Source of the DNA: Candidatus Latescibacterota bacterium
GTDB taxonomy: Bacteria > Latescibacterota > UBA2968
DNA: 64,000 nucleotides
Reading direction: 5' to 3'
NCBI GenBank assembly: GCA_965204745.1
Contig: OZ242010.1
Span: forward strand, 2,080,001-2,144,000
Position 1 is the stretch's first letter; each line of letters starts with the position of its first letter. Below are positions 249 to 48,078 of this stretch, in pieces. The notes beneath the pieces were generated by a model. That model was not told the DNA's origin. It did no database searches and worked only from the letters and a program-made list of their open reading frames with translations. The translations under genes and the position numbers were made by a program.

Positions 249-983
249 CTACGCATTTGTCTGTGCTTTCGTGTACGTATGCGTCAGTGCGTCTTGGGGA
301 TGCCAGCCTAGGACGCGCTTTGCTTTTTCATTTGAGAATTGTCCGTGCGGGCGGTTGGCGAAGATGTTGAACGCCTCGCAACGGGAGGGCAACTCGTCCA
401 ATGCAATGGTCAATCCCGGCAAAAACGCGGCGGCGGCGTCTCGCCACGTCACCAGAAACGGGCGGTTCTGATGCGTGTTTGACAAATCGTCATGAGAACA
501 AAAAATGTAGAACAAGTAGCACAACACATGCACGTCGCAATTCGCGGCGAAAATCCGGCAGATCTCTTGGCCCAAGCCCTTGGACAGCGCGTACAAATTC
601 GTGCTCGGCTTGGGCGGCACATCCGGGCCAATGCCGTAATCCCACGCCTCGTAGGGCGCGCCTTGCACGGTGAAATGCGGCCCGGTGTTGATCACGCGCG
701 GAATCCCGTGCGCGACCGCGGCGCGCATGATATTGTAACAGCCCATGGTGTTGACATCAAACGCGATCTTGCGATGCGGGCGCAACACGGACAAATTGAT
801 GATCGCGTCCATGCCCTCTGCGGCGCGCATCACCGCGTCTGCGTCTGCCACGTCCACGGGCACCATGTCGTGCGGCGTGTCAAACGGTTCCAGATCGGTC
901 AGGCGCAATTCGACCTGTCCTTCCAATGCCTTGACCACATGCGGCCCCAACATGCCATTGCTACCGTAAATGACGACTTTCAT
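249..983 (-). CDS. NAD-dependent epimerase/dehydratase (extended SDR, uronate-dehydrogenase-like)
   Basis: MKVVIYGSNGMLG Rossmann motif; catalytic YALSK (YxxxK); GGAGAG RBS upstream of ATG at 983. Confidence 0.85.
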   Translation of the reverse strand: MKVVIYGSNGMLGPHVVKALEGQVELRLTDLEPFDTPHDMVPVDVADADAVMRAAEGMDAIINLSVLRPHRKIAFDVNTMGCYNIMRAAVAHGIPRVINTGPHFTVQGAPYEAWDYGIGPDVPPKPSTNLYALSKGLGQEICRIFAANCDVHVLCYLFYIFCSHDDLSNTHQNRPFLVTWRDAAAAFLPGLTIALDELPSRCEAFNIFANRPHGQFSNEKAKRVLGWHPQDALTHTYTKAQTNA

Positions 984-1074
984 TTTTCTCTCCATTCTCA
1001 TTGCAAAAAATCGTTTTAAGATAAATGATGACTCCTCTCCCGTGCGCTCCACAACAGAGGGAGCCGTTATTCCC

Positions 1075-1350: not shown

Positions 1351-1995
1351 CTAAAGCCCCAATACGCTCTTTGCGCGGCCTATTGGGAATCGGGCATGCG
1401 CGACCTCGGATTGCACATGCAACACCTGCCACAGCGGGCCGTTTGTCGCCAGAGCTTGCCCGATGGCCTTGACCGCATCTGCCATGGACAGCGCCATGTC
1501 GCCATCGCCGCCCACATCGCCGAAGCGCAAACACGTCACGCGCACCGAGTGCTCGCGTGCGAACTCTCGGCAGGTGAACTCGCCCAAATACCGCGCCAAT
1601 GGCTCGGCTTGTGTGGAAGGCCGCGGAGCCCACACTTCTGTCACATGATAGTTGGGATCGCAAGTTGCGAACAAGTGCAGGGAACTGACATACACCACAT
1701 GCGGCACATTCTTCTCCCGCGCCGCGTACATCAGGTTATACGTACACCGCGTCTGAAAATCCATCTCCCGCTCATCACTTTTCAACGCCTCGGGCAGGGT
1801 TGCGAGATGCACAATGGTATCCATCCCATCCACAAGGGCTTCTGTCTCGCCCTCGTGCCCGAGTTCACATGTAACGAACTCGCGATCCGTCTCCACATCC
1901 ACAACATCGGTCAGTACAACCTCGTGTGTGCCGGCCAATGCCTCGGCCAGTGCCTGCGCCAACGCGGTCTCGCCCGACGTAATCAACACGTTCAT
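1351..1995 (-). CDS. NAD-dependent epimerase/dehydratase-like protein with degenerate motifs
   Basis: Paralogous to 249..983 (GMDTIVHLA, CTYNLMYAA, VTCLRFG) but lacks GxxGxxG and YxxxK; AGGAGG RBS. Confidence 0.8.
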   Translation of the reverse strand: MNVLITSGETALAQALAEALAGTHEVVLTDVVDVETDREFVTCELGHEGETEALVDGMDTIVHLATLPEALKSDEREMDFQTRCTYNLMYAAREKNVPHVVYVSSLHLFATCDPNYHVTEVWAPRPSTQAEPLARYLGEFTCREFAREHSVRVTCLRFGDVGGDGDMALSMADAVKAIGQALATNGPLWQVLHVQSEVAHARFPIGRAKSVLGL

Positions 1996-2562: not shown

Positions 2563-3453
2563 TTATTTCTCCAAATACACCACGCCATCTTCGCCGATGT
2601 CCAAACTGAGCGCGTGTGCGCCGGTGTTTGAATAGGGGCCATACATGACCGCGCGCTGTTCCTCGGTCATGCCCGCTACGATCTCGTCGTCCCAATACGT
2701 CTCGGGCGGGGCGATGGGTTGCGAGATGCCCGATCTCGTCGCGGTGCGCGAGGCGTATTTGATCAAGATGGATCGCCGTTCAAAATCAGCGGTCCACGGG
2801 TGCGTGCCGTGGGTTTGCGCGCCGTCCATAAAAAAGAGCACGTCGCCCGGGTGCAAATCCGGTTCGGCCACCGCGCCCATTTCGTCTTCTTGCGACCGCA
2901 CGCTAGCGGGCATGGGATACTTTGCCTTATGCGAGCCCGGCACGCAGGCAAAGCCGCCCGATCCGGTGGGCGATTCGCCCAACTGAAAGGTGACGGTGAC
3001 CCCGCCGACATACGCCTTGCCGTTTTGGTGGTGATAGGCCACGGCTTCTCGATGCGGTTCGCCCGCGCCGTGCAGGTTGCCCCCTTTGGTGCCGTTGATC
3101 CCCCCGATGAACTGCGGCCCGTGATCCAGCCGAAACCCCTTGCCGCACATGACGTTGAGGCGCGACACAATGGCGGGCAGGGCGATCATTTTGCGAAACG
3201 GCTCGCAATGGGGCGCGGGCAAGGTCAACAAAAAGGGATAGCTGTTGGTCGTGCGGGTCAAGATGCCGTTTTCAATGCTGGGGCGACTGCGCTGGCGCAG
3301 CACTTCGACTTCGGAACTTTTGTCATCGCTTTGCACCACCTCGCCGAGATAGTCAATCGCCTCGTTCGCGGCCTCGACCTCTGCTTGCGGAAACACATCG
3401 CGCAAGACGAGATAACCGGTCAGGTCCCAGTAATAGCGTTCTTTGGCAGTCAT
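2563..3453 (-). CDS. PhyH-family Fe(II)/2-oxoglutarate-dependent enzyme
   Basis: YYWDLTGYLVL N-terminus, GGFACVPGSHK, PGDVLFF...THG, ERRS; proximal motif LHGAGE. Confidence 0.9.
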   Translation of the reverse strand: MTAKERYYWDLTGYLVLRDVFPQAEVEAANEAIDYLGEVVQSDDKSSEVEVLRQRSRPSIENGILTRTTNSYPFLLTLPAPHCEPFRKMIALPAIVSRLNVMCGKGFRLDHGPQFIGGINGTKGGNLHGAGEPHREAVAYHHQNGKAYVGGVTVTFQLGESPTGSGGFACVPGSHKAKYPMPASVRSQEDEMGAVAEPDLHPGDVLFFMDGAQTHGTHPWTADFERRSILIKYASRTATRSGISQPIAPPETYWDDEIVAGMTEEQRAVMYGPYSNTGAHALSLDIGEDGVVYLEK

Positions 3454-3533
3454 GGTTTGCTCCTGTTATGCGTAACCCCAGCCATCCATCAATCGTCAGG
3501 ATGGGGGGTAATCGCTAGTGGCTGATCGCTCAT

Positions 3534-4433
3534 TCAATCCGCCGCTTGTCGTGCTTGCATGTTTTCCAAGCGAACCGCGCCGTCGGCTTCGACGACGAGA
3601 AACATCTCATCACTTCCGGGGGCAGAGCACGGCCCGAACATGACAGCGCGTTGTTGCTTGGTCATGCCGCGCACGATATCGTCGTCCCAAAAAATTTCGG
3701 GTCGGCACACCTGTTGCGATGGCCCGCCGCGCGTGGCGGTGCGCGAGGCGTATTTGAACAGGATGGATCGCCGGTCGTGGTCGTTTTGCCAGGGGTGGGT
3801 GCCGTGGGTTTGCGCGCCGTCCATAAAAAAGAGCACATCCCCGGCCCGAATGCCCGGGTTGGCGACCGTGCCCATGTCCTCATCGCAGTAGCGAACGCCA
3901 ATCGGCATGTCGTATTTCGATTTGTGCGAGCCCGGCACGCAGGCAAAGCCGCCTTTGCCTTCCGGACAATCGGTCAAGTTCCAAGTGACCGTGACGCCGC
4001 CGCAATACATTTCGCCGTTCTGGTGATGATAGGCCACAAAGTCCCGGTGCGGTTCGCCCGCGCCGTGCAAGGTGAGGCCCGCGGTGCCTTTGACTGCGTT
4101 GTTGAATTGAGGGCCGTGATCCAAGCGAAAGCCCGCGCCGCACATGACCTTCAGATATTGCACGATGACCGGATGGGCGAGCAGGTTGCGGATCGGCTCG
4201 CAATGGGGTTTTGGCAACGTCAACAAATTTGTCCCATGCGCCCAGCGCGGCCCGGCCCCGCGCAAAAACGCAGAATCCGCTGCCCCGTGATTGGCTTCGC
4301 TCTGGTGAACAATGCCCGCGTCAATGACGTAATTCAAGGCGGCATTCACGGCATCGAGTTCTTCGGGCGACAAGACTTCTCGCACCACCAAATGCCCGGT
4401 CACGTCCCAGTAGTAGCGTTCTTTGGCCGTCAT
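3534..4433 (-). CDS. PhyH-family Fe(II)/2-oxoglutarate-dependent enzyme
   Basis: GGFACVPGSHK, AGDVLFF...THG, DRRS; proximal motif LHGAGE. Confidence 0.9.
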   Translation of the reverse strand: MTAKERYYWDVTGHLVVREVLSPEELDAVNAALNYVIDAGIVHQSEANHGAADSAFLRGAGPRWAHGTNLLTLPKPHCEPIRNLLAHPVIVQYLKVMCGAGFRLDHGPQFNNAVKGTAGLTLHGAGEPHRDFVAYHHQNGEMYCGGVTVTWNLTDCPEGKGGFACVPGSHKSKYDMPIGVRYCDEDMGTVANPGIRAGDVLFFMDGAQTHGTHPWQNDHDRRSILFKYASRTATRGGPSQQVCRPEIFWDDDIVRGMTKQQRAVMFGPCSAPGSDEMFLVVEADGAVRLENMQARQAAD

Positions 4434-4451
4434 GATTGCTCCAATCTATCG

Positions 4452-5336
4452 TCAGGGTGACGCGACAACGTGCGCGGTTTCGCCATCGGATTCCAGCAGG
4501 GGCAGGCGACCGCCGTGGTGAACGCCCGGCCCATACAAAACAGCTCGTTGTTCGGCCGTCAATTCATCGACCCAATCGCCGTAGCGTTCCCGTGGCGTAA
4601 AGTATTTGCCCACAGCGCGAGCCGCTGCACGCGAGGCGTATTTGTAGAGCACGGAACGGCGTTCGCGTTCGCCGTTCCAGGGCAGCGTGCCATGGGTCAT
4701 GGTTTCGGCAAAAAAGAGCACGTCGCCGGCACGCATGGTGGGTTGATAGACCAGGCCCATATCGTCTTCAACAGAGCGCACTTCTTCCGGCGTTGGCTCG
4801 GCGGTTTTGTGGCTGCCTGGGACGCAGGCAAATCCCCCGTCGCCTTCGTTGACATCGGTCAGTTGCCACGCCACGGTAATGCCCCGACAGAAAATTTTGC
4901 CGTTCTGTTGGTGGTACCAAACCGACTGGCTAAACGGTTCGCCGCCGCCGTGCAGGCGATGGCCCTCTGCGCCTTGGTGCGCGCTGATCAAGAGGGGGCC
5001 GTGATCCAAGCGAAAGCCCTTGCCGCTCAATTCATTCAGGCGGCTCACGACGACCGGGTGGACGAGCAGTTGGCGAAACGGTTCGCGATGCGGTTCGGGC
5101 CAGCCCAACATGCCCGAGAGTTCGCGCCGGCCTTCTGTACCCGCCAGCGCGGACGACCCCCGCGCCAATCCGCCATCGTCGATAGCACGCGGTTTGATTT
5201 CATCGGCGTAGTGGTCAATGGCATCGTTGCACGCTTGCACCTCTGCGGCGGACAATGCGTTGCGGACGATCAAATAGCCGCGCAGATCGAAAAAGTACTT
5301 CTCTTCTTCGCTGACAGTATAAAGGTGGTTATCCAT
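4452..5336 (-). CDS. PhyH-family Fe(II)/2-oxoglutarate-dependent enzyme
   Basis: YFFDLRGYLIV, GGFACVPGSHK, AGDVLFFAETMTHG, ERRS; proximal motif LHGGGE. Confidence 0.9.
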   Translation of the reverse strand: MDNHLYTVSEEEKYFFDLRGYLIVRNALSAAEVQACNDAIDHYADEIKPRAIDDGGLARGSSALAGTEGRRELSGMLGWPEPHREPFRQLLVHPVVVSRLNELSGKGFRLDHGPLLISAHQGAEGHRLHGGGEPFSQSVWYHQQNGKIFCRGITVAWQLTDVNEGDGGFACVPGSHKTAEPTPEEVRSVEDDMGLVYQPTMRAGDVLFFAETMTHGTLPWNGERERRSVLYKYASRAAARAVGKYFTPRERYGDWVDELTAEQRAVLYGPGVHHGGRLPLLESDGETAHVVASP

Positions 5337-5512
5337 GGTGACGCTCTCCTAACTGGTTGAGGGACAAATTGACGAGACGCACGGGCGTAAGCGAGTAATC
5401 CCGGCCATTCGGATCGTAAGGACAGACCCGCCCAACAATCCCAAAATCCGCCGCACTTCGTAGATGGCTTGCGATGTAGCCGTTGTACCCCATCCGTCGA
5501 TTCGCCGATGTG

Positions 5513-6382
5513 CTATTCCCGTGCGTCTGCATCTAGTTGCACGGTGCCATTTTCACGGACCGTTAGATAGGGCACGCGGCCCCTGTGGTTGGAATAGGGG
5601 CCGTACATCACGGACAATTGCTCGGGCGTCATGCCGTCCACGATTTCGCGGTCCCAGTAGATTTCCGGTGGGGATACTTCCTGCGATGGGCCGCCCCGAG
5701 CGCAGGTGCGCCCTGTGTATTTGAACAGGATGGACCGCCGGGTCGTCTCCAATTTCCACGGGGTCGCGCCGTGTGCTTGCGCGCTGTCCATAAAAAAGAT
5801 GACGTCGCCGGACTTGACCACGGGCTGTGTGATCAAGCCCATGTCGTCGTCTCCTGTACGCACGCCTCTCGGCGTGGGGAACATGGATTTGTGGCTAGAA
5901 GGCACGCAGGCAAACCCGCCCATGCCCTCCTTGCAATCGTGCAGTTGCCACGCCACGGTCACGCCGCCGACCCAAGGCGCGCCATTTTGATGGTGATAGG
6001 CCACATGCGGGCGGTGCGGTTCGCCATTGCCGTGCATGGTGTGGCCCGCGGTGCCTTTGTTGCTCACGATAAACATCGGCCCGTGATCCAAGCGAAAGCC
6101 TTTGCCACACATGACATTGAGATATTTCACCAACACCGGGTGCGCCAGCATGTCCCGAAAGGGATCGCAGTCGGGTTTTGGAAATTCGAGAATGCCGGGC
6201 AACATCGGGCGCCCCGTGCCCGCAAAGGCCACGGAATCTCGCGCTGTTGAACCGCCCACTTGCACCTTGTCCCAATACCGCTCCACAATTTCATTCGCGC
6301 GTTCCACCTCGGCTTTTGACAACACGGCCTTCACGACGAGATACCCCGTCAAATCCCAGAAATACCGCTCGCGTGCATTCAT
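5513..6382 (-). CDS. PhyH-family Fe(II)/2-oxoglutarate-dependent enzyme
   Basis: YFWDLTGYLVV, GGFACVPSSHK, SGDVIFF...AHG, TRRS; proximal motif MHGNGE; AGGAG RBS. Confidence 0.9.
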   Translation of the reverse strand: MNARERYFWDLTGYLVVKAVLSKAEVERANEIVERYWDKVQVGGSTARDSVAFAGTGRPMLPGILEFPKPDCDPFRDMLAHPVLVKYLNVMCGKGFRLDHGPMFIVSNKGTAGHTMHGNGEPHRPHVAYHHQNGAPWVGGVTVAWQLHDCKEGMGGFACVPSSHKSMFPTPRGVRTGDDDMGLITQPVVKSGDVIFFMDSAQAHGATPWKLETTRRSILFKYTGRTCARGGPSQEVSPPEIYWDREIVDGMTPEQLSVMYGPYSNHRGRVPYLTVRENGTVQLDADARE

Positions 6383-6454: not shown

Positions 6455-7318
6455 TCAAAACAACGCCATCTGCGCGGCCGCGCCCCGTTCTGCGGGCCAA
6501 GGCCGCATCTCGCCGACATCGATCTGGTTGGACAGCAGTCGGTGAAAATGGCGGGCCAAGTGCGGCGCGTAAAAATCATCGGGCGCGTGGAAAAAGACAA
6601 ACGGGGTTCGCCCCTCGCGGATCCAATTCGCAACCACGGGCGCCCATTCCGACAGCAAGGGCAAATTTTCACGCACTTCGGGGTGCCCGACAAATCTGAC
6701 AAAAGGAAATCGCCCGGTTGCGACAAACCGCACCGGGACCTTGGGCTTTTTGCGCTGTGCTTCGCGCCCTGCCGGATCATCGACGTTTGCACTGTGCAAT
6801 CCCCGGGTGTCAAAGACCACGCGATTCGCACGATGGCTTTTGAGAACCGCGGTCAGTTCATTTTCCGCTTCGGCAAAAAACAAATTGTGTCGGATTTCCA
6901 CCGCGTAGTGAAATGCGTTGGGCAGCGCGGTCAAGTACTCGTCCAACGCCGGCAAATCCCTCGGGCCAAACGCGGGAGGCAATTGCAGAAACGATGGGCC
7001 TATGCGGTCTTGCAGTGTCGCGAGCAAATCCATAAACGCAGCGGTTTCCGGTTCGGCATTTCGCAACCGCTTGGTATGGCTGATCACGCGCGGGAACTTG
7101 AGGGCAAAGCGAAAGCCCTTTGGGGTATGGGCCAGCCAACGCGCCGCGGTCTTTGCGGTAGGCAACCCGTAAAACGTGGTGTTGCCTTCCACCGTGTTAA
7201 ATACCGAGGCGTATTGTCGCAAAAAATCCTGTTGCTTGGCCTCTGCCGCGAACAACTCGCCGACCCACGCCTTGTTGCCCCAAATTGGACAGCCCAAAAA
7301 ATATCGCTCGATGCCCAT
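6455..7318 (-). CDS. DUF72 (YecE-like) protein
   Basis: LGCPIW, FNTVEGNTTFY, FRFALKFP, FLQLPPAF, AVEIRH motifs; GGAGA RBS before ATG at 7318. Confidence 0.9.
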   Translation of the reverse strand: MGIERYFLGCPIWGNKAWVGELFAAEAKQQDFLRQYASVFNTVEGNTTFYGLPTAKTAARWLAHTPKGFRFALKFPRVISHTKRLRNAEPETAAFMDLLATLQDRIGPSFLQLPPAFGPRDLPALDEYLTALPNAFHYAVEIRHNLFFAEAENELTAVLKSHRANRVVFDTRGLHSANVDDPAGREAQRKKPKVPVRFVATGRFPFVRFVGHPEVRENLPLLSEWAPVVANWIREGRTPFVFFHAPDDFYAPHLARHFHRLLSNQIDVGEMRPWPAERGAAAQMALF

Positions 7319-7390
7319 GGCCTCTCCTTCCGCGCGGCCTCCCCTTTCCGCCCAACCGCCCGTGCGTGCCCTTCCGCTCCGCCTCTCCAC

Positions 7391-7414
7391 CCGTGCGTGC
7401 CCAAAGATACAAGA
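7391..7414. repeat. 24-bp direct repeat, left copy
   Basis: CCGTGCGTGCCCAAAGATACAAGA, identical to 9387..9410. Confidence 0.9.
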
Positions 7415-7477: not shown

Positions 7478-8080
7478 TTACAACTCGTTGCGATCTGTTT
7501 CGCGTTGCCATTGCTGAAATACATTAACGAGAGGATCGACAAATCGCTGGAAGGATCGATCCGCACGCTTGGCGCGGTTAATGTCCATGCTTTGCACGAT
7601 ATCTTCTGCGAACTCGATGCCGCCAAGACTGGGCATGATGCCCGCGGCGCGAATGGCCGTAGCCAAACGTCGTTTGTAGAGATCGCGGTCACACTTTCGA
7701 TCCGGTGCGTCGCAACCCCTTCCGACTGCGGTTTTGAATGCGGCACTATCGAGCAACAGCCAGCGTTCGATATGTGGGTCGGGGATGGCGAGGATCATGG
7801 GCGCGGGGGTGGTGGTCTGATCCATTTCTTTTTTGCGCTCATTTAGTCCCCTACAATTGGCGTCCGTGGCAACGATGATCAAGTCGGGCAACGGGCTTCC
7901 TTGTCCGCGCAAGTCGCGCAAATAGTCGCGGAGTTCCAGAACGACCCGTCCGTGGCCCCTTACTGCACTTCGCCAGTTGAACTGCACGTCGATACTGTAT
8001 TCATCGGCAAGGCGTTGCACCAATGCGCCGATAACTTCTTGATGGGCGAAGTCTTCCACGAACAGCGCGATCTCACGCAT
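7478..8080 (-). CDS. DUF4276-like / TOPRIM-like partner of the upstream ATPase
   Basis: ALFVED N-terminal acidic motif, IIVATDAN, IERWLLLD; overlaps the ATPase stop. Confidence 0.7.
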   Translation of the reverse strand: MREIALFVEDFAHQEVIGALVQRLADEYSIDVQFNWRSAVRGHGRVVLELRDYLRDLRGQGSPLPDLIIVATDANCRGLNERKKEMDQTTTPAPMILAIPDPHIERWLLLDSAAFKTAVGRGCDAPDRKCDRDLYKRRLATAIRAAGIMPSLGGIEFAEDIVQSMDINRAKRADRSFQRFVDPLVNVFQQWQRETDRNEL

Positions 8081-9371
8081 CGAAATCTCCTCTCAAAATG
8101 CGCTCGGAAACGGGAAGCCTTTCCGCTTGGTCGATGAATGCTTGATCAATATCCTCGCGGCGCGTCAGCGGCCCCCAGGTGGTAAAGGGGTCGATATGCG
8201 TTTGGCGATCACTGCGCCGCACCGCGAACAGGGAATCGTCCGCCAGCAGATCGGGAAGAATCGGCGAGTGCGTGGTGACGATGTATTGGGTCGGCCCCAG
8301 GCTTGAGCGCGTCTTCAGCATTTCTGCGATCAACTGAATCCGCCGCGGGTGAACCCCGTTCTCCGGCTCCTCAAAGCCCACCAGCGAGGGCACTTCATCC
8401 GCGCCGGTCAATGCCAAAAGCCCCAGCATTCGCAACGTGCCTTCAGACAGCACCCGCGCGGGAATGGCAACACCGCTTTCCCGAAGGCGCAACTCGACCT
8501 CGCCGAGATCGCTCACATCCACTTCGATTCCCTCCGCATTGGGCATCAAGGTGTGCAATGCCTTTTCAACGGCCTTGAACTGCTCGGGCTTGAGTGCCTT
8601 AAGCGTATTGAGAAAAGCCGCGAGGTCTTCGCCCATCAGCCCCATGTGGCGCACTTCCTTGACCGGATTGGCCGCGCGCATGCGCTCGCGTGGCTCAAAG
8701 TAGAAGAACAGCCAATGCTGCAATTCGCGCCGCGCCGCGACCAAGTGCGGATAATGCGGCGGATAATGCGGCATGGAGAGAATCGTGTAGTCGAGGTAGC
8801 GGTCGTAGTACGTGGGGTGCGCTTGTCCCTCCAGCCGCAAACGGATATGATCGCCATACGGTTCGATAAAGGGCTTGCGCTTGCCGGTGGGTTCGCCTGC
8901 GGCGTTCAGAGCCGCCAAGTATTCGTCCCTGACGTGAACATTCCCGAATCGGGGTTGCATCTCGACCTCAACTCGGTAGCGCAAGTTGCGTTCCCGCACG
9001 GGCGCGGGCCTGCTGTTCGTCTCTGCACCACTTGGACGCCGCATTTCTCGGATCTGCCGGTTGACCGCATCGACGACCGCGTCCGACAGTTCCAAATCCG
9101 CCTCAATAGCAAAGGCCAACTTGTCTTGTTCAACCAGTCCCTTCAGCCCTTTGTCTCCAACTGTGAAGGATTCGAGCAACTTGCCCCGATACGGCGGATC
9201 AAAGGCTTCTTTCAAGGTGCGGCTCGTCGCCAGTTTCGACAACAGTTGGAGCGCGTCGAGAAAATTGCTCTTGCCCGCTGCGTTCGGCCCAAATAACAAG
9301 GTGAGGGGCGAAAGCCGCACCTCCATGTCAGACAGGGATTTGTACCCCTTGATATGAACGCGCTTCAGCAT
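8073..9371 (-). CDS. ABC/SMC-like ATPase (AAA_21-type)
   Basis: Walker A GPNAAGKS, signature LSEGTLR, Walker B/D-loop GFEEPENGVHP, H-loop TTHSP. Confidence 0.9.
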   Translation of the reverse strand: MLKRVHIKGYKSLSDMEVRLSPLTLLFGPNAAGKSNFLDALQLLSKLATSRTLKEAFDPPYRGKLLESFTVGDKGLKGLVEQDKLAFAIEADLELSDAVVDAVNRQIREMRRPSGAETNSRPAPVRERNLRYRVEVEMQPRFGNVHVRDEYLAALNAAGEPTGKRKPFIEPYGDHIRLRLEGQAHPTYYDRYLDYTILSMPHYPPHYPHLVAARRELQHWLFFYFEPRERMRAANPVKEVRHMGLMGEDLAAFLNTLKALKPEQFKAVEKALHTLMPNAEGIEVDVSDLGEVELRLRESGVAIPARVLSEGTLRMLGLLALTGADEVPSLVGFEEPENGVHPRRIQLIAEMLKTRSSLGPTQYIVTTHSPILPDLLADDSLFAVRRSDRQTHIDPFTTWGPLTRREDIDQAFIDQAERLPVSERILRGDFDA

Positions 9372-9821: not shown

Positions 9822-10871
9822 TTAGGCATCCGCATCCAACAAGTGCTGAAAGGCCTCCAGATCATCCACTTGCACCGCCGAGCGAAGCAACCGCTTGAGC
9901 CGTTGCATGTCTTCAATCGCGGCAATGTGAGCGGCGAACTGACCGGCAACGGCCGGATCAAAGCGAACCTCCAACACGTCGAGGATAGCGTCAATGGTAT
10001 GTTCTCTACCCCCTTGCTCGATGCCTTGCTCGATGCCCTGCTCGATGCCCTGCTCGATGCCTTGCTCGATGCCCTGCTCGATGCCCTGCTCGATGCCCTG
10101 CTCAATGCCCTGCTCAATGCCCTGCTCAATGCCCTGCTCAATGCCCTGCTCAAGAAACTGTTCCTTGAACTGTTCCTGGATCTGTTCCTTGAGATATTGG
10201 GTAAACGATGACTCACGCATAATCGCGTCCATAAAACCCTCCTGGGAAAGAATCCGCATGATGGTGGCAGGCTCATAAGCCAACCCACTCAAGACCGCCA
10301 AGCTACTCAAATAATTCGCCTTGTCTGCCTGATCCAACGAAACCGAATCGCCCTTGCGAACACACGCGCGCAACCAATCTTCGGAACCCATCCCCACAGG
10401 CGGCTTCATCAAGGGCGCGAAAGGAAGCAAGCCTGCCTGACCGCCTTCAAGAATGCCGCGCCCGTCCATCTCGCTCAACCGAAGCACCTTGTATTGCACA
10501 AGGACGAGATGACCGGCGAGTTCTTGAATGTAGTAGCCCTCATCGCGGCGCCCGGCATTGGGACGCAGGTAGATGACAAAGGAATAGACCGACAAACCAT
10601 ACTGCTCGATGAGTCGGATGATATAGGAAGCCATGCGAATAGCCATATTCGCGCTGTCGGCGGTTTGAAATTCGATGTGAACCAAGGCTTCCTCGCCATC
10701 GATCCGCACGCGAATCACGCTATCGACCAGGCGCGTTTCCACCTTGGGGAGTTCGGTATCGAGGACTTCTTCAACTTCAATTTCGACATCCTCGCGTCCG
10801 AGAGCCAAGCGGATGAGGTCTTGCGGGTAGATGCGAATCAACTGCTTGGGAATCGTATCGTATTCTGCCAT
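9822..10871 (-). CDS. Rpn-family recombination-promoting nuclease / putative transposase (PD-(D/E)xK)
   Basis: LDTELP...RLVDSVI...LVHIEFQT...MAIRMASY, LLPFAPL, GIEQ repeats, C-terminal LEVRF helical domain. Confidence 0.85.
   Translation of the reverse strand: MAEYDTIPKQLIRIYPQDLIRLALGREDVEIEVEEVLDTELPKVETRLVDSVIRVRIDGEEALVHIEFQTADSANMAIRMASYIIRLIEQYGLSVYSFVIYLRPNAGRRDEGYYIQELAGHLVLVQYKVLRLSEMDGRGILEGGQAGLLPFAPLMKPPVGMGSEDWLRACVRKGDSVSLDQADKANYLSSLAVLSGLAYEPATIMRILSQEGFMDAIMRESSFTQYLKEQIQEQFKEQFLEQGIEQGIEQGIEQGIEQGIEQGIEQGIEQGIEQGIEQGIEQGIEQGGREHTIDAILDVLEVRFDPAVAGQFAAHIAAIEDMQRLKRLLRSAVQVDDLEAFQHLLDADA
10012..10152. repeat. 12-bp tandem repeat (11 full units) encoding (GIEQ)n
   Basis: ATGCC(C/T)TGCTC(G/A) units from 10021 to 10152 plus a partial unit. 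Confidence 0.95.
10230..10243 (-). promoter_or_regulatory. Intragenic Shine-Dalgarno and in-frame ATG inside the Rpn gene
   Basis: Minus strand reads AGGAGG-GTTTT-ATG; ATG at 10232 is in frame with the stop at 9822 (136 aa). Confidence 0.7.
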
Positions 10872-11025
10872 GGGACGCCTCCTGATGTGCCATGGTTTGA
10901 ACGACTTGTGGAACAACAATAAATAATCTCCAATCCCGCTCGCGATGTCAAGTGATTTTCCCCAGCCGCTCCGCCCATCCGCAGGGTTTTGGTCTTACGT
11001 CTTGCTTCTGCCTTCTCCCCGCCTT

Positions 11026-18440: not shown

Positions 18441-19937
18441 ATGCGACCAAATTTTTTGATTTTTTGCGTGGATCAGATGCAGGCGTATTGCCTGGGTTGC
18501 AATGGGCATCCCGATGTCAAGACCCCGCATTTGGATCGCTTGGCGCGGGATGGCGTCTTGTTTCGCCGCAATTATTGCTCGCATCCCGTGTGCCAGCCGT
18601 CGCGGGCGTCTTTGATAACGGGCTTGACGCCTTCGCAACACGGGGTCACCCAAAACGGCATGAGCCTGTCCGAAGAAATGCCGACCGTCACCGAAGCATT
18701 GTCCAATGCCGGGTATCGCACGTATGCGGCGGGCAAGCTGCATTTGCAACCCTTTTCGGGCGGGCCGTCGTGGGAAAATCGCCATCGGTGGTACAGCGGC
18801 GAGGTGACGCATTTGCCCGAAGGGTATTACGGGTTTGGGGAAACGGATTACGTGGGCGGCCATGTGAACTACGTTTGCGGGGATTATCGAAACGAGTTGG
18901 AACGAGAACATCCGCACATCGCGCAACCGGAGCATCCCAAAGCCAGTCCGATGGCGTGCATTCCCTACGCACAATTTTCCGCCTATCAAAACTTCGGGTA
19001 TCAGACTTGGAAAATCGACCAAATTCCAGCCGAGTTGCACTACAACCACTGGATCGCGGACCGCACGATGGCGTTTATAGATCGGTTGGGCGAAGATGAG
19101 AACTTCTTTGCGTGGTGTTCGTTTCCGGACCCGCACCATCCTTTTGCGGCGTGCAAACCGTACAGCGAACTGTACGATCCCGCATCATTGACCCTGCCCG
19201 AAACATTTTTCGCCCGCGAAAACCCGGCCGCGCACAGCGCGTTGCGAAAACAAGGCCCCGCGTGGTTCGATGGCGATGCGGATGATTTGCGGCAGGTGAT
19301 GGCGCAAACCTACGGCATGATTTCGCATATCGACGACAATGTGGGACGCGCTATCGACTTTCTGAAGGCAAAGGGCTTGTACGGAAACACGGTCATTGCA
19401 TTCATCGCGGATCACGGCGAGTATTTGGGATCGCACCACTTGTGGCACAAAACGCCCTGGCAGTGGGAAGAGTTGTTGCGCGTGCCGTGTATTTGGAAAG
19501 CGCCCCAAGGTCATACCGGTATTTGCGATGACGTGGTGAGCAATTTGGATTTTGTGCCGACCGTGTTGGATTACGCGGGCGTCGATCAAATTGCCATGCG
19601 ATTTCGGCGAGACGACTGGGCAGTTGCCGGCTTTGAATTGCCCGGGCGATCCCTTCGACCGCGTATCAGCGAGGGGGCCGATCTTTCGGATCGCCCGGCA
19701 TTTGTCGAGATGGGATCGATCCGCACCTCGATCACACAACGCCATAAAATCGTCGTGGATGCCTCGGCCCTCGGGCACAACGCGCTCATCGATTTGGAAC
19801 GCGATCCGCATGAAAAAACAAATTTGTGGGATCATCCGGAAGCGCGGGACATAAAAACCGACCTGCTGACGCGCCTGATGCGCGAGAGCATCCGCTACAC
19901 GCGCATGGACAATCCCAGAATCACGGCGTCGGCATAA
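18441..19937 (+). CDS. Formylglycine-dependent sulfatase
   Basis: PNFLIFCVDQ, CQPSRASLITG, GKLHL, PDPHHP, ADHG. Confidence 0.95.
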   Translation: MRPNFLIFCVDQMQAYCLGCNGHPDVKTPHLDRLARDGVLFRRNYCSHPVCQPSRASLITGLTPSQHGVTQNGMSLSEEMPTVTEALSNAGYRTYAAGKLHLQPFSGGPSWENRHRWYSGEVTHLPEGYYGFGETDYVGGHVNYVCGDYRNELEREHPHIAQPEHPKASPMACIPYAQFSAYQNFGYQTWKIDQIPAELHYNHWIADRTMAFIDRLGEDENFFAWCSFPDPHHPFAACKPYSELYDPASLTLPETFFARENPAAHSALRKQGPAWFDGDADDLRQVMAQTYGMISHIDDNVGRAIDFLKAKGLYGNTVIAFIADHGEYLGSHHLWHKTPWQWEELLRVPCIWKAPQGHTGICDDVVSNLDFVPTVLDYAGVDQIAMRFRRDDWAVAGFELPGRSLRPRISEGADLSDRPAFVEMGSIRTSITQRHKIVVDASALGHNALIDLERDPHEKTNLWDHPEARDIKTDLLTRLMRESIRYTRMDNPRITASA

Positions 19938-19964
19938 GAACCCGACCTTTTCAAAGGAGAGACG

Positions 19965-21371
19965 ATGTCCAACCAACCCAATGTCATTGTGTTTTTCACG
20001 GATCAACAGCGCTGGGATTGCATGGCCGCGCATGGCAATCCCTTGGGGATTACGCCCAATTTGGACCGCGCAGCGCGGGATGGCACGCATGTGTACAACA
20101 GCTTTACCTGCCAACCCGTGTGCGGCCCGGCGCGGGCGTGTTTGCAAACCGGGATGTACGCGAGCGAAACCGGGGTGTATCGCAATGGCCTCGGCCTGAA
20201 CCCGGATCACGAGACCCTGGCGCAGTGTTTTCACGATTCGGGCTATCACACGGGCTATATCGGCAAGTGGCATCTGGCGACAGGTGTGCGCGGTGCCGTG
20301 CCCGAAGCCCAGCGCGGAGGGTACCAGTATTGGCTTGCGGCTAATGCGCTGGAAGCGACGTCCGATGCTTATGACTGCGTTGTGTACGATAGCGATGACC
20401 GAGAGGTGAAGTTGCCCGGGTACCGGGTGGACGCGCTGACCGACGCGGCGATTCGGTTTGTGGATGAACGCCAGGGCCATCCCTTTTTCCTGTTTATGTC
20501 CTTTTTGGAGCCGCATCACCAGAATCATTTAGACGATTATCCCCCGCCCGATGGGTACCGCGACATGTACGCCGGTCACTGGACACCGCCCGATCTCGCG
20601 GCATTGCCCACGCATCCGCAGGCCGAAGGCGAATATCCCGGTGCCGTGCCCACGGGCGGTAGCGCGCAACAACATTTGGGCGGGTACTGGGGCATGATCA
20701 AGCGGTTGGACGAGGCTTATGGGCGGTTGCTCGACGCGCTGAAAAGTTTGGGGTTGTTGGAAAACACGATTGTGTTGTTCACTTCGGATCACGCCTGCCA
20801 TTTCCGCACCCGCAACAGGGAGTACAAACGCTCGTGTCACGACAGTTCGATTCGCGTTCCCACCGTGTTGACCGGCGGGCCATTTACCGGCGGGGGCACG
20901 CTCGGCGAGTTGGTGAGTCTGGTCGATTTGCCCCCGACCTTGTTGGACGGTGCCGGGTTGGAGATTCCCGAGCAAATGTCGGGGCGGTCCATCCTGCCGA
21001 TTTTGGGCGGCAGGGGCAGAACGCTCGCCCGCCCTTGGCCGGATGACGTTTTTGTGCAGATTTCAGAGAGCGGTGTTGGGCGCGCGGTTCGCACCAAGCG
21101 ATGGAAATACGCGGTCCACAGCGATCAGTCACAGCCCGGCACAGCGGGCGCAGCGCGGTATGCCGAAGCCTATCTCTACGATTTGGAAGCCGATCCGTAC
21201 GAATTACGCAATCTCATTGGCCATGAAAGCCATCACCAGGTCGCAGACCACATGCGCGCGCGCCTATTGCGCCACATTCGAGAGGTTGAAGGCGAGTCCC
21301 CGCAGATCGTCCCCACGCACACCCGCCAAAGCGGTCAACGCCGCGTGTCCGCCGCCGAAGTGGAGATGTAA
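19965..21371 (+). CDS. Formylglycine-dependent sulfatase
   Basis: PNVIVFFTDQ, CGPARACLQTG, GKWHL, TSDH, LYDLEADPYE. Confidence 0.95.
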   Translation: MSNQPNVIVFFTDQQRWDCMAAHGNPLGITPNLDRAARDGTHVYNSFTCQPVCGPARACLQTGMYASETGVYRNGLGLNPDHETLAQCFHDSGYHTGYIGKWHLATGVRGAVPEAQRGGYQYWLAANALEATSDAYDCVVYDSDDREVKLPGYRVDALTDAAIRFVDERQGHPFFLFMSFLEPHHQNHLDDYPPPDGYRDMYAGHWTPPDLAALPTHPQAEGEYPGAVPTGGSAQQHLGGYWGMIKRLDEAYGRLLDALKSLGLLENTIVLFTSDHACHFRTRNREYKRSCHDSSIRVPTVLTGGPFTGGGTLGELVSLVDLPPTLLDGAGLEIPEQMSGRSILPILGGRGRTLARPWPDDVFVQISESGVGRAVRTKRWKYAVHSDQSQPGTAGAARYAEAYLYDLEADPYELRNLIGHESHHQVADHMRARLLRHIREVEGESPQIVPTHTRQSGQRRVSAAEVEM

Positions 21372-21454
21372 AACCACCTCCCGCGCCCGACCAAAGTGAG
21401 CGGAAAGAGGGGCGAGGCGGACTGACAACTGACAACTGACTGGAGAGACGAGAA

Positions 21455-22483
21455 ATGTACATTCAAGATCAAGTCCATTACGACGATTTGGGCGATGAAA
21501 TTTTGAGCTTTTACCGGGCGATCAGCGTGGATTCCATCCACCTCGAATTGCGGGGCGGGCGACCGCCGGCAAGCGCGGCGCGCAAGGTGCGCGGGAGCGG
21601 GACTGGGCAGGCCCATACCACACTCGCGCAGCGGATTCGCGCAGGGGAAGATTGCACGGAGGAATTTGTGCAGGCGCGGGAATTGGTGGAATCCCACGGC
21701 TTGAAATTGAACAACATCTTCATGCCGTGCTGGGAAGAGATCGCGCTGGCAATGGAAGACCGGGAGGAAAAGATCGGGTACTGGTGTCGGATGCTCGAAT
21801 CCCTGGGCAGGGCGGGCATCCCTTGGTTGGGCTGGAATTTCAAACCCATGGGCAATTTTCGCACGCCATCGGCCACGGGCCGCGGCCGGGTGACGTACAG
21901 CACGTTTGACTACGAATACTTCCGGCAGAATCGCCCCGAACAAGTCGATCCCCCGGTTTCGGAAGACGCGATGTGGGCGAATTTGGCGGTGTTTTTGCAA
22001 GCGGTGATCCCGGTGGCAGAGAAAGCGGGCGTGCGAATGGCTCTGCATCCGGACGATCCGCCCATTCCCGAACCGCTCGGAGGCATCGCGCAGATCTGTT
22101 CCTCACTCGATCAATTCAGGCGCACGTTTTTCGAGATCGCGCCGAGTGACAGCAATGGCATGTTGTTCTGTCAGGGATGCATGACCGAGTTGCTCGGCCC
22201 TGGGGTATATGACGCGATTGCAGAGATGGCGTCCAAAAACAAAATCGCGTGGGTGCATTTTCGCAATGTCAAGGGCCGGTTGCCGCGATTCGTGGAAGTG
22301 TTTATGGACGAGGGCGATATCGACATGAAACGCGCGATGGAGATTTACCGCGACAATGGCTTCAACGGCCCTTACATGATGGATCACACGCCGCGCTTTG
22401 CCCATCCCACGCACACGCAGTTGCACGGCAAAGCCTATGCCATCGGGTACATCCGCGCCTTGATAGACGACGTCTATGCCTAA
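21455..22483 (+). CDS. uxuA: Mannonate dehydratase (UxuA) family protein
   Basis: VIPVAEKAGVRMALHPDDPP, WVHFRNV, DEGDIDM, MDHTP, AYAIGYIRAL. Confidence 0.8.
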   Translation: MYIQDQVHYDDLGDEILSFYRAISVDSIHLELRGGRPPASAARKVRGSGTGQAHTTLAQRIRAGEDCTEEFVQARELVESHGLKLNNIFMPCWEEIALAMEDREEKIGYWCRMLESLGRAGIPWLGWNFKPMGNFRTPSATGRGRVTYSTFDYEYFRQNRPEQVDPPVSEDAMWANLAVFLQAVIPVAEKAGVRMALHPDDPPIPEPLGGIAQICSSLDQFRRTFFEIAPSDSNGMLFCQGCMTELLGPGVYDAIAEMASKNKIAWVHFRNVKGRLPRFVEVFMDEGDIDMKRAMEIYRDNGFNGPYMMDHTPRFAHPTHTQLHGKAYAIGYIRALIDDVYA

Positions 22484-35147: not shown

Positions 35148-36233
35148 CTACCCAGTCAACCTCCGCATCGCCCACTCGAGCGGGCCGCGGTCGAAGTGTT
35201 TTCGCCATGTGTCGGAATAGGCGACAGCCAATGCAAAAAATACGACCGCGCTCGTCACGGCAAACTCGAGACGCTGATTCTCCAAACGCCCGAAAATGTC
35301 CAAAATGCCCATCCCCAGTACGACGTGTGCGACGTAGAGCGTCAGCGAAAGTTGGCCTGTTGCCACGAGTGCGCGATGCAATCTGAGATGCACAAATCGC
35401 TGCGAGAGCATGACGCACAGCGCGATAACGGCAAATGCCGTGCCGCCCGCCGCCAGCATGTACAAGGGCACAGGTGGGAGCATTGCAGTTCCAAAGACGG
35501 CGCGTATCGCTTCTACGGAATCGGCGGATGCACGCGCTGTCAGGGTCTCGATTAGCACTGCGGATAGAAACTCGGCAACGAGCGCGACCCCTACACCCAC
35601 CAGCAACACGCGCTTGCTCACCGACGCGTCAGCCATATTCTGCCTGCCCAGCCACATTCCCGCCAATAAAAAAGCAGTCCAGGGCATAACGGGATGAAGG
35701 CCGTTAAAAAACAAGTTGCGGATCATGCCCAACGGCGTCCAGAGCCCTTCGTACTCCAACGTGGTAAAATCCCATTCTGCCTCGTAGTTAAAACACAGGA
35801 GCAACGCGGAGAAGGCGATGACAAATGCGGCTGCCAATCCCCAAAGCCAGCGGCCGGATGCCGACAGGACAAGCGCGCCGATGGTGATGTAAAGGCCGTA
35901 GAAGTGCAGGATGTCGCCCGAGTAAATGGGGAGGTACAGCATGCCGACCACGAACAAGAAGGCGGCGCGCCGCCACAGGATCTTGCGGGCATCGAACAGG
36001 GCTTTGGAATCGCCGGATTGTAGATCGCGGCGCGTCGCCAGCGATAGGCCAACACCGGCCAAGATGACGAAGATGGCAGCGGCGCGACCTTCGAACAGCC
36101 CCGTCGCAAAGGCGAGCCAGCCGGGGCCGCTCCCATCGGCTGTCATGACGACCTTGTAGTTGACCAGTGTCATGCCAAAGATGGCAAAGGCGCGGGCCAC
36201 ATCGTAGCCGAATATGCGGTTTCCCACCTGCAT
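35148..36233 (-). CDS. DUF418 (YeiB-like) integral membrane protein
   Basis: RIFGYDVARAFAIFGM, GRAAAIF, GDILHFY, GQLSLTLYVAH, RGPLEWAMR. Confidence 0.88.
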   Translation of the reverse strand: MQVGNRIFGYDVARAFAIFGMTLVNYKVVMTADGSGPGWLAFATGLFEGRAAAIFVILAGVGLSLATRRDLQSGDSKALFDARKILWRRAAFLFVVGMLYLPIYSGDILHFYGLYITIGALVLSASGRWLWGLAAAFVIAFSALLLCFNYEAEWDFTTLEYEGLWTPLGMIRNLFFNGLHPVMPWTAFLLAGMWLGRQNMADASVSKRVLLVGVGVALVAEFLSAVLIETLTARASADSVEAIRAVFGTAMLPPVPLYMLAAGGTAFAVIALCVMLSQRFVHLRLHRALVATGQLSLTLYVAHVVLGMGILDIFGRLENQRLEFAVTSAVVFFALAVAYSDTWRKHFDRGPLEWAMRRLTG

Positions 36234-36253
36234 TTGCAGTCTCCCTAAAAAAA

Positions 36254-36326
36254 TGCCCCTGGCAGGACTCGAACCTGCGACCAACGGATTAGGAATCCGC
36301 TACTCTATCCTCTGAGCTACAGGGGC
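36254..36326 (-). tRNA. tRNA-Arg (anticodon CCT), CCA not encoded
   Basis: GCCCCTG/CAGGGGC acceptor stem, D-arm GCTC..GAGT, anticodon loop TTCCTAA, T-arm GCAGG-TTCGAGT-CCTGC. Confidence 0.96.
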
Positions 36327-45900: not shown

Positions 45901-46716
45901 TCATACCGTATTGTTTTCCAGCGAATACGTGCGGTTGCCGCCGGGGGGGCCTCCGATAGCCCATGTCCCGCGGAACAGGGATTGGCGTTTGGGCGGCATG
46001 GCGGCGATGGTCTCGTGGCGCAGGTTGAGGCGATGCCATTGCGCCCAGATCGAGTTGTAGCAGTTAAACACCGCACAGCGAGGATTAGAGGTTTGCGTCC
46101 AGTCGTTCGCCGCGTGGACGAGGCTTTCGGTGAAGATGACCACGGAGCCGGCCGGACAAGTGTAATCCTCCATTGCCGCGCGCATGTTCTCCTCCCACGG
46201 CGAGTCGCTGATGTTGGGCCGGTTCGGATCCGGCCCCCCGTAGTTGAAATGCGCTTTGTGCGATCCGCTCAAAAAGGATGTGCCTCCTGTTCCCGCTTCT
46301 ACATCTTCGAGTTCCCACACCACGCGGGTCAGCCCCGAAAATATCTTTCCGCCCGCGACCTGATACCGCATGGCATTGGCCTGTTGGGGCGGACGCACCA
46401 CATGCGGCATGCCGTTGTCGCGCCGTTCAGATGCGCGCCAGCCGGGTCGCCGCACAGTGGTAAATGACCCTTCGCATCGAAAGCTGTAACAGTCGTCCCG
46501 CACAAAAGGGGCTTCGGACAAAATCTCGGTGAGAATGCCCACGATACCCGGGTGGTCGAGCAAGTTCTGAAGCGCGCCACCATAACTCTGCCTGGCCCCG
46601 GCGTACACCTCTGCCTTCATCTCGTCAATTTCCGGCTGTGACAATACGCCAGGCAATAAAATCCACCCGCGCAGATCGAAGAAAAACTTCTGCTCGGGGG
46701 TCATCAGTTCTGCCAT
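45901..46716 (-). CDS. PhyH-family Fe(II)/2OG enzyme, divergent
   Basis: FFFDLRGWILL, GGTSFLSGSHK, AGSVVIFTESLVHA; AGGAGG RBS. Confidence 0.85.
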   Translation of the reverse strand: MAELMTPEQKFFFDLRGWILLPGVLSQPEIDEMKAEVYAGARQSYGGALQNLLDHPGIVGILTEILSEAPFVRDDCYSFRCEGSFTTVRRPGWRASERRDNGMPHVVRPPQQANAMRYQVAGGKIFSGLTRVVWELEDVEAGTGGTSFLSGSHKAHFNYGGPDPNRPNISDSPWEENMRAAMEDYTCPAGSVVIFTESLVHAANDWTQTSNPRCAVFNCYNSIWAQWHRLNLRHETIAAMPPKRQSLFRGTWAIGGPPGGNRTYSLENNTV

Positions 46717-47094: not shown

Positions 47095-48078
47095 TCACAT
47101 GAGTTCTCCGCCACAACTGCTGCCCGCGCCCGCCGTGCAGCCAAAGCAGTGATCGCCCACGCGCACGTCGCGGCCGATCAAGTCGTCGGGCATCACCTCC
47201 CAGAGTTTGACCTCGCGCCCAAACGCATGCAGATCGAGCATCTGGTTAAAATCGCAATCGTAAATCTCGCCTTGCCACCCGACGCTGATCAAGGATCGGC
47301 ACATCAAATTATCGACTGTGTGGGGATTGAAATTGTCCTGCAAGGTCTGCACGTACTGGTCGTAAATGCCCCTGCGCTTGAGAAAATCCCCAAAGCGGCT
47401 GATGGGCATGTTGGTGATGGTGTAGAGCTTGTTGAAGGCGATGTCGTAGCGCGCTTTTAGTTCCGCTTTGTAATCGGCTTCGAGTTCGGCCTGCGGCGGC
47501 GGTAGTGACGCGCCGACCGGGTTGTACACCAGATGCAGTTCCAACCCCGTGCCCGCCCGGCCATATCCGATGCGGTTGAGCAGTTGCAACGCCCGGATGC
47601 TCTTGGTAAAAACGCCGCGCCCGCGCTGTTCATCCACATTTTCCTCCAGATAACACGGCAGGGAACACACCAATTCGATTTCGTGTGCGCGGTAAAATTC
47701 CGGCAGGTCTTCCTGCCCGCGTTCAAAGATCACGGTCAGATTGCAGCGCACCATCACGCGGCGGCCCTGGGCGCGGATGCGCTCGACAAAAGCGCGAAAA
47801 TCCGGATTCAACTCGGGCGCGCCCCCGGTGAGATCAACCGTCTGCACATCGGACTGTTCGAGAAAGGACGCGATGCGGTCGATGGTCTCACCGGTCATGA
47901 TCTCGGTGCGCGTGGGGCTGGCATCCACATGGCAGTGGCGACACGCTTGGTTGCACAATTTGCCCAGGTTGACTTGCAGAATATCTAACCGGTCGCGTGC
48001 GAGTGCGAGGTGTTCATCGCGGAGTTTGCTCGCAAAATCGGTCTTTTGATCCCCACGCGCAATTTGCATCAAAGCCAT
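47095..48078 (-). CDS. Radical SAM protein, ArsS/DUF3641 family
   Basis: LQVNLGKLCNQACRHCHV, TGGAPELN, SLPCY, YDCDFNQML, HCFGCTAGAGSSCGG. Confidence 0.9.
   Translation of the reverse strand: MALMQIARGDQKTDFASKLRDEHLALARDRLDILQVNLGKLCNQACRHCHVDASPTRTEIMTGETIDRIASFLEQSDVQTVDLTGGAPELNPDFRAFVERIRAQGRRVMVRCNLTVIFERGQEDLPEFYRAHEIELVCSLPCYLEENVDEQRGRGVFTKSIRALQLLNRIGYGRAGTGLELHLVYNPVGASLPPPQAELEADYKAELKARYDIAFNKLYTITNMPISRFGDFLKRRGIYDQYVQTLQDNFNPHTVDNLMCRSLISVGWQGEIYDCDFNQMLDLHAFGREVKLWEVMPDDLIGRDVRVGDHCFGCTAGAGSSCGGELM

Follow-up and report, generated by a model that had tools for sequence, protein, structure and literature searches.

The window analysed here is a 64,000-nucleotide stretch of the genome of a Candidatus Latescibacterota bacterium (contig OZ242010.1, positions 2,080,001 to 2,144,000), and our subject is an array of four PhyH-family paralogues, which its list of open reading frames (ORFs) places head to tail on the minus strand and which we name A, B, C and D. 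Paralogue A (2563–3453, minus strand) encodes 296 aa with the motifs LH128-G-A130-G-E132, FFM-D210-GAQT-H215-G and R226-R-S; paralogue B (3534–4433, minus strand; 299 aa) reads LH123-G-A125-G-E127, FFM-D205-GAQT-H210-G and R221-R-S; paralogue C (4452–5336, minus strand; 294 aa) reads LH129-G-G131-G-E133, FFA-E211-TMT-H215-G and R226-R-S; and paralogue D (5513–6382, minus strand; 289 aa) reads MH117-G-N119-G-E121, FFM-D199-SAQA-H204-G and R215-R-S. Gaps of 80, 18 and 176 bp separate the genes, which are connected by direct repeats 60–77% identical at the DNA level, and at the protein level B, C and D are 59%, 46% and 53% identical to A. The Pfam family PhyH (PF05721) matches A, B, C and D at E-values of 2.7e-9, 7.1e-15, 5.1e-13 and 2.8e-10, with scores of 38–56 bits against a gathering cut-off of 22; NCBIfam has nothing above its cut-off for any of the four. 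Most likely, A–D belong, as tandem paralogues, to a single large subfamily of PhyH-type Fe(II)/2-oxoglutarate (Fe/2OG) oxygenases that is itself uncharacterised and has HygX as its only characterised relative.

The canonical HxD/E triad is absent from all four proteins. The proximal His (H128 of A, codon 3070–3072; H123 of B, 4065–4067; H129 of C, 4950–4952; H117 of D, 6032–6034) is followed two residues on, at the position we call His+2, by Ala, Ala, Gly and Asn, respectively, and each protein retains both the distal His (H215, H210, H215 and H204 in A to D), within THG or AHG, and the RRS arginine (R226, R221, R226 and R215). An earlier sequence-only reading of this DNA had reported HGA, HGA, HGG and HGN in place of HxD/E, together with a kept distal His and RRS arginines, and the codons and residues confirm it on both points. 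To see these positions in a wider frame, we joined A–D with 120 close homologues into a close set of 124 sequences, in which the proximal His, the Gly that follows it, the distal His and the first Arg of RRS are invariant (124/124). This Arg opens a strand 11 residues past the distal His, and it is a predicted ligand of 2-oxoglutarate, whose C5 carboxylate is bound at this place in PhyH enzymes. Upstream of the distal His, invariance of histidines is limited to the proximal His and that of an SHK motif; of the others, H134 occurs in 118 of the 124 sequences and H141 in 90 (A numbering). The residue at His+2 is Ala in 84, Ser in 24, Gln in six, Arg in four, Asn in two, Lys in two, Gly in one and Thr in one, and never Asp or Glu (0/124).

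The 150 best representatives of clusters at 50% identity yielded 116 full domains, and in these, too, the same position never holds an acid (0/116). Four representative domains first flagged as carrying an acid there in fact read H-G-G with an insertion. Judged by these comparisons, the missing acid is an inherited trait of the family and not the product of four separate losses, since neither the close homologues nor the representative domains have Asp or Glu at His+2. Stretches encoding relatives number at least 510 in GTDB genomes, and we kept 77 of them, referred to as the related loci; LHGEGEP occurs in three of their 166 family domains. These three (L019, 7929–8861; L065, 8001–8873; L068, 8001–8870) have Glu at His+2 plus a second acid of the D-X4-H type taken up below.

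That the proximal His of the family occupies the canonical HxD position is well supported by alignments and predicted models together. In AlphaFold models of B and C it closes a short strand (residues 120–123 in B, 126–129 in C), and the His of HxD usually sits at such a strand end. When the family profile was aligned by hhalign to a canonical PhyH neighbour, the FHVD His fell exactly on the proximal His column, and WHQD of a second canonical PhyH protein from the related loci fell one residue off it. HMMER pairs SLHRDE of DhiD with sLHggg of the family, and the 20 canonical PhyH ORFs of the related loci put their HxD/E on these columns, HMMER being biased to the conserved His.

A carboxylate does occur shortly before the distal His. 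In C it forms E-X3-H (FFAE-TMTHG), and in A, B and D it forms D-X4-H (FFMD-GAQTHG type), with a turn one residue longer. Every member of the close set has an acid here (Asp in 122, Glu in two; 124/124), and among 98 representative domains that bear the proximal His, E-X3-H is found in 69 and D-X4-H in seven, the acid being absent from 21 and the distal His missing from one. Spacer length tracks the acid, four residues accompanying Asp and three accompanying Glu. Across the related loci, a non-acid His+2 is combined with an acid at −4 or −5 from the distal His in 150 of 166 family domains; of 20 canonical HxD/E PhyH ORFs at the same loci, 16 lack an acid at −4/−5, three have one at −5, none has one at −4 and one was unreadable, a comparison that is a descriptive pattern and not a test because the sets are phylogenetically clustered. 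In the models, the acid comes immediately after a strand (200–204 in B, 206–210 in C), the distal His starts a strand (210–213 in B, 215–218 in C) and the Arg starts another (221–229 in B, 226–234 in C), with predicted local distance difference test (pLDDT) scores of 94–98 for the blocks around these three residues.

The sequence-only reading had offered two carboxylates as possible third ligands, this Asp/Glu of FFMD/FAE and the Glu of HGxGE, and our data favour the former, which is acidic throughout the close set and appears equivalent to the Glu of E-X3-H in HygX. Were the HGxGE Glu the ligand, four residues past the proximal His, the site would be an H-X3-E...H triad, a proposal consistent with its invariance in A–D, its place in the loop directly after the ligand His, an acid in 95 of the 124 close-set sequences (Glu in 80, Asp in 15) and a Glu nearby in HygX (L-H-G-G-N-S-E). 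However, the remaining close-set members have Ala (21), His (five), Gln (two) or Asn (one), and an acid is present in only 27 of the 98 His-bearing domains of the wider family. The loop is, moreover, the least confident core part of the B model (pLDDT 79 and 67 for residues 121–140), and a review, in the text available (PMC13374393), sets the acid of HygX at E-X3-H instead. The case for this Glu is weak, and we consider it improbable as the third ligand.

We next compared the family with solved proteins. The AlphaFold models of B (pLDDT 90.4, predicted template modelling score (pTM) 0.86) and C (pLDDT 91.3, pTM 0.90) matched only Fe/2OG enzymes of the double-stranded beta-helix (DSBH) fold among the Foldseek matches listed, and for both models alike ranks 1–10 were all chains of HygX (B: E 8.9e-16, target TM about 0.7; C: best E 8.5e-18, target TM 0.74, root-mean-square deviation 2.2–2.9 Å). 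HygX, the Streptomyces hygroscopicus enzyme that forms the hygromycin B orthoester (PDB 4XC9, 4XCA, 4XCB, 4ZPI), is the best match to the array family by sequence as well as by fold. It was the best solved relative of a profile built from the four sequences (E 7.6e-9, with EctD, PHYH, AviO1 and BesD at 0.01 or worse and BesD at 0.052), and a diverse profile of 59 family sequences raised it to 1.5e-27, against 4.5e-14 for EctD, 6.1e-12 for DhiD and 6.3e-11 for PHYH. The halogenases CytC3 (3.7e-7) and SyrB2 (4.6e-6) matched this profile only at positions 185–237, around the distal His. Alignment with solved enzymes, which the sequence-only reading had proposed as a check, thus set HygX far above the halogenases SyrB2 and BesD, but the loop after the proximal His did not align stably.

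These comparisons bear on the central claim of that reading, a candidate halogenase array. As free-standing Fe/2OG halogenases, A–D would bind iron through two His, the Ala, Gly or Asn at His+2 would open a halide site, and the conserved Asp/Glu would be a second-sphere or substrate-binding residue. HxA is the motif of SyrB2 and HxG that of WelO5 and BesD, which the H-x-A of A and B and the H-x-G of C fit; SyrB2 (2FCT) and CytC3 (3GJA) have a PhyH-like fold within the same fold group, give the partial profile matches above and, in the case of SyrB2, rank 29th in Foldseek for B (E 1.3e-10). Furthermore, a clade nested in the family has no acid at either position, so that two-His sites do arise in this lineage, and the ligand role of the Asp/Glu is predicted from sequence and not from geometry. 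To our knowledge, Fe/2OG halogenases (SyrB2, CytC3, WelO5 and BesD, 6NIE) lack a compensating carboxylate, whereas the array proteins and all their close homologues (124/124) have a carboxylate where HygX has its metal-binding Glu, and their similarity to halogenases is much weaker than that to HygX by the E-values just given. No halogenase, SyrB2 included, is among the Foldseek matches listed for C. Nor is His+2 held small, because it is Asn in D, Ser, Gln, Arg, Lys or Thr in relatives and Glu in three of 166 family domains. A scan of 57 window ORFs and nine small ORFs near the array found no non-ribosomal peptide synthetase (NRPS), polyketide synthase or carrier domains, in agreement with the sequence-only reading, which had seen no NRPS or carrier protein nearby. 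As HygX shows on the account of it in the available review text (PMC13374393), an H-x-G motif alone is insufficient to mark a halogenase. With HygX the closest relative by both sequence and fold and a relocated acid throughout the close set, the halogenase claim is not upheld, and we regard it as very unlikely.

The same review text describes the HygX triad as H-X-G...E-X3-H, with the acid relocated and glycine in the vacated place, has Lys137 taking up the space of the missing Asp, and classes the enzyme as an oxidative cyclase, not a halogenase (PMC13374393). The HygX sequence printed by HMMER contains a sole E-X3-H, E202-A-L-M-H206, and HMMER aligns iFtEAltHGt of the family to LLNEALMHGT of HygX without gaps, so that E202 is paired with the acid of the family and H206 with its distal His; the proximal His of HygX is likely equivalent to that of the family. 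HygX and C share H-G-G, with no acid at His+2, as well as E-X3-H, and HygX has the GSHK motif and the Arg after the distal His in common with the family. The two systems differ in that A, B and D have D-X4-H where HygX has E-X3-H, in the stretch from the first strand to the proximal His (by about 10 residues) and in their hosts, an actinomycete for HygX and an uncultured Latescibacterota-like bacterium here; unlike the context of HygX, the 57 window ORFs scanned include no orthosomycin or aminoglycoside biosynthesis genes. With canonical PhyH oxygenases (human PHYH, 2A1X; EctD, 3EMR/4Q5O; the PHYHD1/FJS 2'-O-methyl-nucleoside demethylases), the array proteins have in common PF05721, the DSBH fold, the distal His, the 2-oxoglutarate Arg and the P-G-S-H-K motif. 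The canonical enzymes, however, carry HxD and lack an acid at −4 from the distal His, and their profile E-values are at least 13 orders of magnitude weaker than that of HygX.

On this evidence, A–D are probably Fe/2OG oxygenases of the HygX type, in which the 2-His-1-carboxylate site is complete but rearranged and the substrates are free small molecules that may derive from carbohydrates. Iron would be held by the proximal His, the Asp/Glu of the turn and the distal His, a triad with its carboxylate relocated as in HygX; C would keep the HygX spacing, and the D-X4-H of A, B and D would be a derived form in which a shorter side chain sits on a turn lengthened by one residue. Being small, the residue at His+2 (Ala, Gly or Asn) would leave space next to the iron for a substrate that is bulky or polar, not for a halide. 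Decarboxylation of 2-oxoglutarate would then be coupled to oxidation of a free small molecule, either by hydroxylation or by HygX-like hydrogen abstraction followed by cyclisation or C–O chemistry. The evidence favours the second option of the sequence-only reading, a set of tandemly diversified oxygenases whose metal site is non-standard.

The family is large, and its members are concentrated in Latescibacterota and Poribacteria. A profile search of 1.84 billion representatives returned at least 2780 clusters (50% identity) at E ≤ 1e-3, 1177 at E ≤ 1e-10 and 235 at E ≤ 1e-30. The related loci belong to Latescibacterota (43), Poribacteria (17), Gemmatimonadota (three), Spirochaetota (three), Pseudomonadota (one) and Chloroflexota (one), with nine unassigned, and 61 of the 77 have two or more family members within about 17 kb. 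Orthologues of A (86% identity, L039), B (81–83%, L001–L004), C (87–89%, L001–L004 and L039) and D (86–87%, L001–L004 and L039) occur in varying arrangements: DUF72-D-C-B in L001, L002 and L004, D-C-B in L003, D-C-A in L039, and D, a B-like copy, C and A in L052. Judged by these gene orders, the D-C pair is the constant part of the array, and the presence of A and of B varies.

We placed 103 domains in a quick IQ-TREE phylogeny, rooted at the midpoint and supported by Shimodaira–Hasegawa-like approximate likelihood ratio test values only. The 73 rows with E-X3-H are spread across the whole tree. The rows with D-X4-H, nine in all with A, B and D among them, are confined to a single clade of 27 (support 99), in which the closest relative of A is B; C lies just outside this clade, beside a 96%-identical representative. 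Within the clade of 27 is a nested clade of 18 rows without the acid (support 97), 13 of which begin no earlier than residue 125 of a longer protein. Its members, all encoded outside the window (P0123, P0125, P0126, P0127, P0132, P0143, P0146, P0148, P0163, P0171, P0233, P0255 and others), have no conserved acid at His+2 or +4 either, and most are C-terminal domains of proteins of about 500 aa whose N-terminal PhyH-like domain lacks the proximal His. They are better candidates than the window genes for a true two-His, halogenase-like site. A bolder scenario takes the array as an intermediate in the migration and loss of the iron carboxylate within a very large clade expanded in sponge symbionts, from E-X3-H (C and most family members) through D-X4-H (A, B and D) to no acid in the nested clade, whose proteins mostly have two domains. 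The open HxA/G/N site would bind an anion or a substrate oxygen directly and support non-hydroxylating chemistry (halogenation, oxidative cyclisation or C–O cleavage), with free host sugars, sulfated or methylated, as substrates. We think this scenario unlikely.

Neighbouring genes offer a weaker indication of substrates. Within 5 kb of family members in the related loci, sulfatases are the commonest neighbour type (23 of 77 loci), followed by DUF6785/6784 (16), other PhyH genes (15 and six), 2-hydroxyacid dehydrogenases (12), amidohydrolases (12) and enolase-superfamily genes (11), counts that are inflated because many of the loci are orthologous. Further neighbours are aldo-keto reductases, apiosidase-like hydrolases and KduI- and UxuA-like genes. 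Because these neighbourhoods contain sulfatases, sugar-acid dehydratases and aldo-keto reductases, and because HygX acts on a sugar, the HygX-type oxygenases of the array may act on carbohydrate-derived compounds met by a sponge-associated Latescibacterota-like bacterium, with the tandem copies as variants in substrate specificity.

Several points weigh against the proposed HygX-type site. The acid before the distal His is a putative iron ligand by homology to HygX and by conservation, identity to HygX is only about 20%, and the HygX ligands themselves are taken from the motif in the available text of one review (PMC13374393) and the sequence printed by HMMER. In the ungapped HMMER alignment, the family's proximal His falls on G112 of HygX and not on L101-H102-G-G, 10 residues upstream, and the position of HygX Lys137 is Thr in A–D and in all 124 close-set sequences. 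The nested clade of 18 has Gly or Ala in place of the acid and keeps both His and RR, from which the acid would seem dispensable for the role of those proteins. The carbohydrate idea depends on loose neighbourhoods. Finally, alignments of the loop after the proximal His to EctD, PHYH, AviO1 and HygX are unstable: the four-sequence profile sets the HxD of EctD, PHYH and AviO1 each on a different query column, WHRD of AviO1 aligns on YHHQ, and ungapped extension from W/Y-H-x-E/Q-D/N-G puts the EctD HxD (H146-S-D148) on H134-R-E136 of A. We therefore relied on invariance and strand position to identify the proximal His, and not on any single alignment.

The last of these alignments raises a separate alternative, namely that the true HxD/E is not LHGA at all but a canonical motif shifted six residues on (P-H134-R-E136 in A, P-H129-R-D131 in B), whose His is found in 118 of the 124 close-set sequences. 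This motif reads F-S-Q in C and H-R-P in D, its +2 residue is Pro in 69 of 124, its His column in the wider family is mostly Phe, His, Arg, Tyr or Leu, and in the models of B and C it lies in a loop, not at a strand end; we judge it exceedingly improbable. Some or all copies might instead be catalytically dead, serving as regulatory proteins or as heteromer partners in the manner of TlxI/TlxJ. Tandem paralogues with a conserved D-C pair, the TlxIJ heterodimer structure among the fold matches and the N-terminal domain of two-domain relatives, which lacks the proximal His, are all compatible with this notion. All four array proteins nonetheless keep both His, the acid, RRS and SHK, their ORFs are intact and their orthologues are 81–89% identical, and loss of activity is accordingly a highly improbable account of them.

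Around the array, a DUF72 gene (PF01904, E 5.4e-55; 6455–7390, minus strand) lies directly upstream of D, 72 bp away, and homologues 75–80% identical to it stand just upstream of D-C-B in L001, L002 and L004; the gene is thus syntenic with the array in three related genomes. Downstream on the same strand, past a 567-bp gap, is a 214-aa ORF similar to NAD-dependent epimerases/dehydratases (1351–1995, minus strand; PF01370, E 3.2e-11). It is short for its family, has an N-terminus that reads VLITSGETALAQ and no clear GxxGxxG, and may be truncated or degenerate. A second ORF of this type (249–1052, minus strand; PF01370, E 1.7e-9) is listed at 267 aa, with its true start likely at the internal MKVVIYGSNGMLG. 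The sequence-only reading had raised a possible link to these two extended short-chain dehydrogenases/reductases, but none of the 77 related loci has a homologue of either (E ≤ 1e-10) at a distance of up to 8 kb from a family member, and they probably lie outside the array unit.

Inverted repeats of 55 nt (1059–1113 and 2133–2187, 80% complementary) flank the first of these ORFs, and inverted copies of 21–25 nt (90–92%; 2374–2398 versus 7351–7375 and 7378–7402) bracket the block from DUF72 to A. Both sets are short, GC-rich and intergenic, and may be elements resembling repetitive extragenic palindromes (REP) or miniature inverted-repeat transposable elements (MITE). Scans for promoters (three found, 3.4 expected) and terminators (11 found, 12.0 expected) were at chance level.

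Elsewhere in the window, the ORF scan identified two tandem sulfatases with a UxuA/xylose-isomerase-like gene (18441–22483, plus strand) and an HGSNAT-like acyltransferase (35148–36284, minus strand), a set characteristic of sponge symbionts that use sulfated glycans. A fifth and divergent PhyH paralogue (45901–46716, minus strand; 271 aa; PF05721, E 5.7e-9) adjoins a radical SAM/DUF3641 gene (47095–48078); its proximal P-H-V-V and distal FT-E-SLV-H-A (E-X3-H) make it of the relocated-acid type, and it forms a long branch within the E-X3-H part of the tree. Directly upstream of DUF72 is a candidate two-gene defence system (7478–9371, minus strand), consisting of an AAA_15/AAA_21 ATPase (432 aa) that matches HEC-01A of PADLOC (E 4.7e-55) and a DUF4276 protein (200 aa) that matches HEC-01B (E 6.4e-6). 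Beyond it, a 365-aa ORF without a Pfam match (9822–10919, minus strand) contains a tandem repeat (10015–10151) of a 12-nt unit in 11.4 copies with 96% matches, encoding (GIEQ)n. Two adjacent genes for putative endonucleases of the Uma2 family (PF05685; 62126–64000, plus strand) close the window, the second running past its end, and a tRNA (36254–36326) is the only Rfam match.

The array also bears on the expansion of PhyH genes in sponge symbionts. According to the available text of Kamke et al. 2014 (PMC3909097), more than 1.9% of the genes in poribacterial genomes carry a PhyH domain, most of them with unknown functions, and several PhyH subfamilies are very abundant in sponge symbionts; those diverse, multi-copy genes of unassigned function belong to the same Pfam family and come from the same kind of host as A–D, and the section on PhyH, as available, describes neither a metal-site variant nor a link to HygX. 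Our literature searches found nothing on the array's family in work on HygX, and nothing that links ketoglutarate-dependent halogenases to Poribacteria or Latescibacteria. If A–D are HygX-type oxygenases, the missing Asp would mark a HygX-like metal site and not halogenases, and mining genomes for halogenases by HxA/HxG would return thousands of proteins as false positives if the residue at −4/−5 of the distal His were left unchecked. The nested clade without the acid, outside the window, would then be a better place to seek new two-His chemistry. For the sponge symbionts themselves, the relocated acid would provide a structural handle on their PhyH expansion, many of whose genes would be relatives of an unusual sugar-oxidising enzyme.

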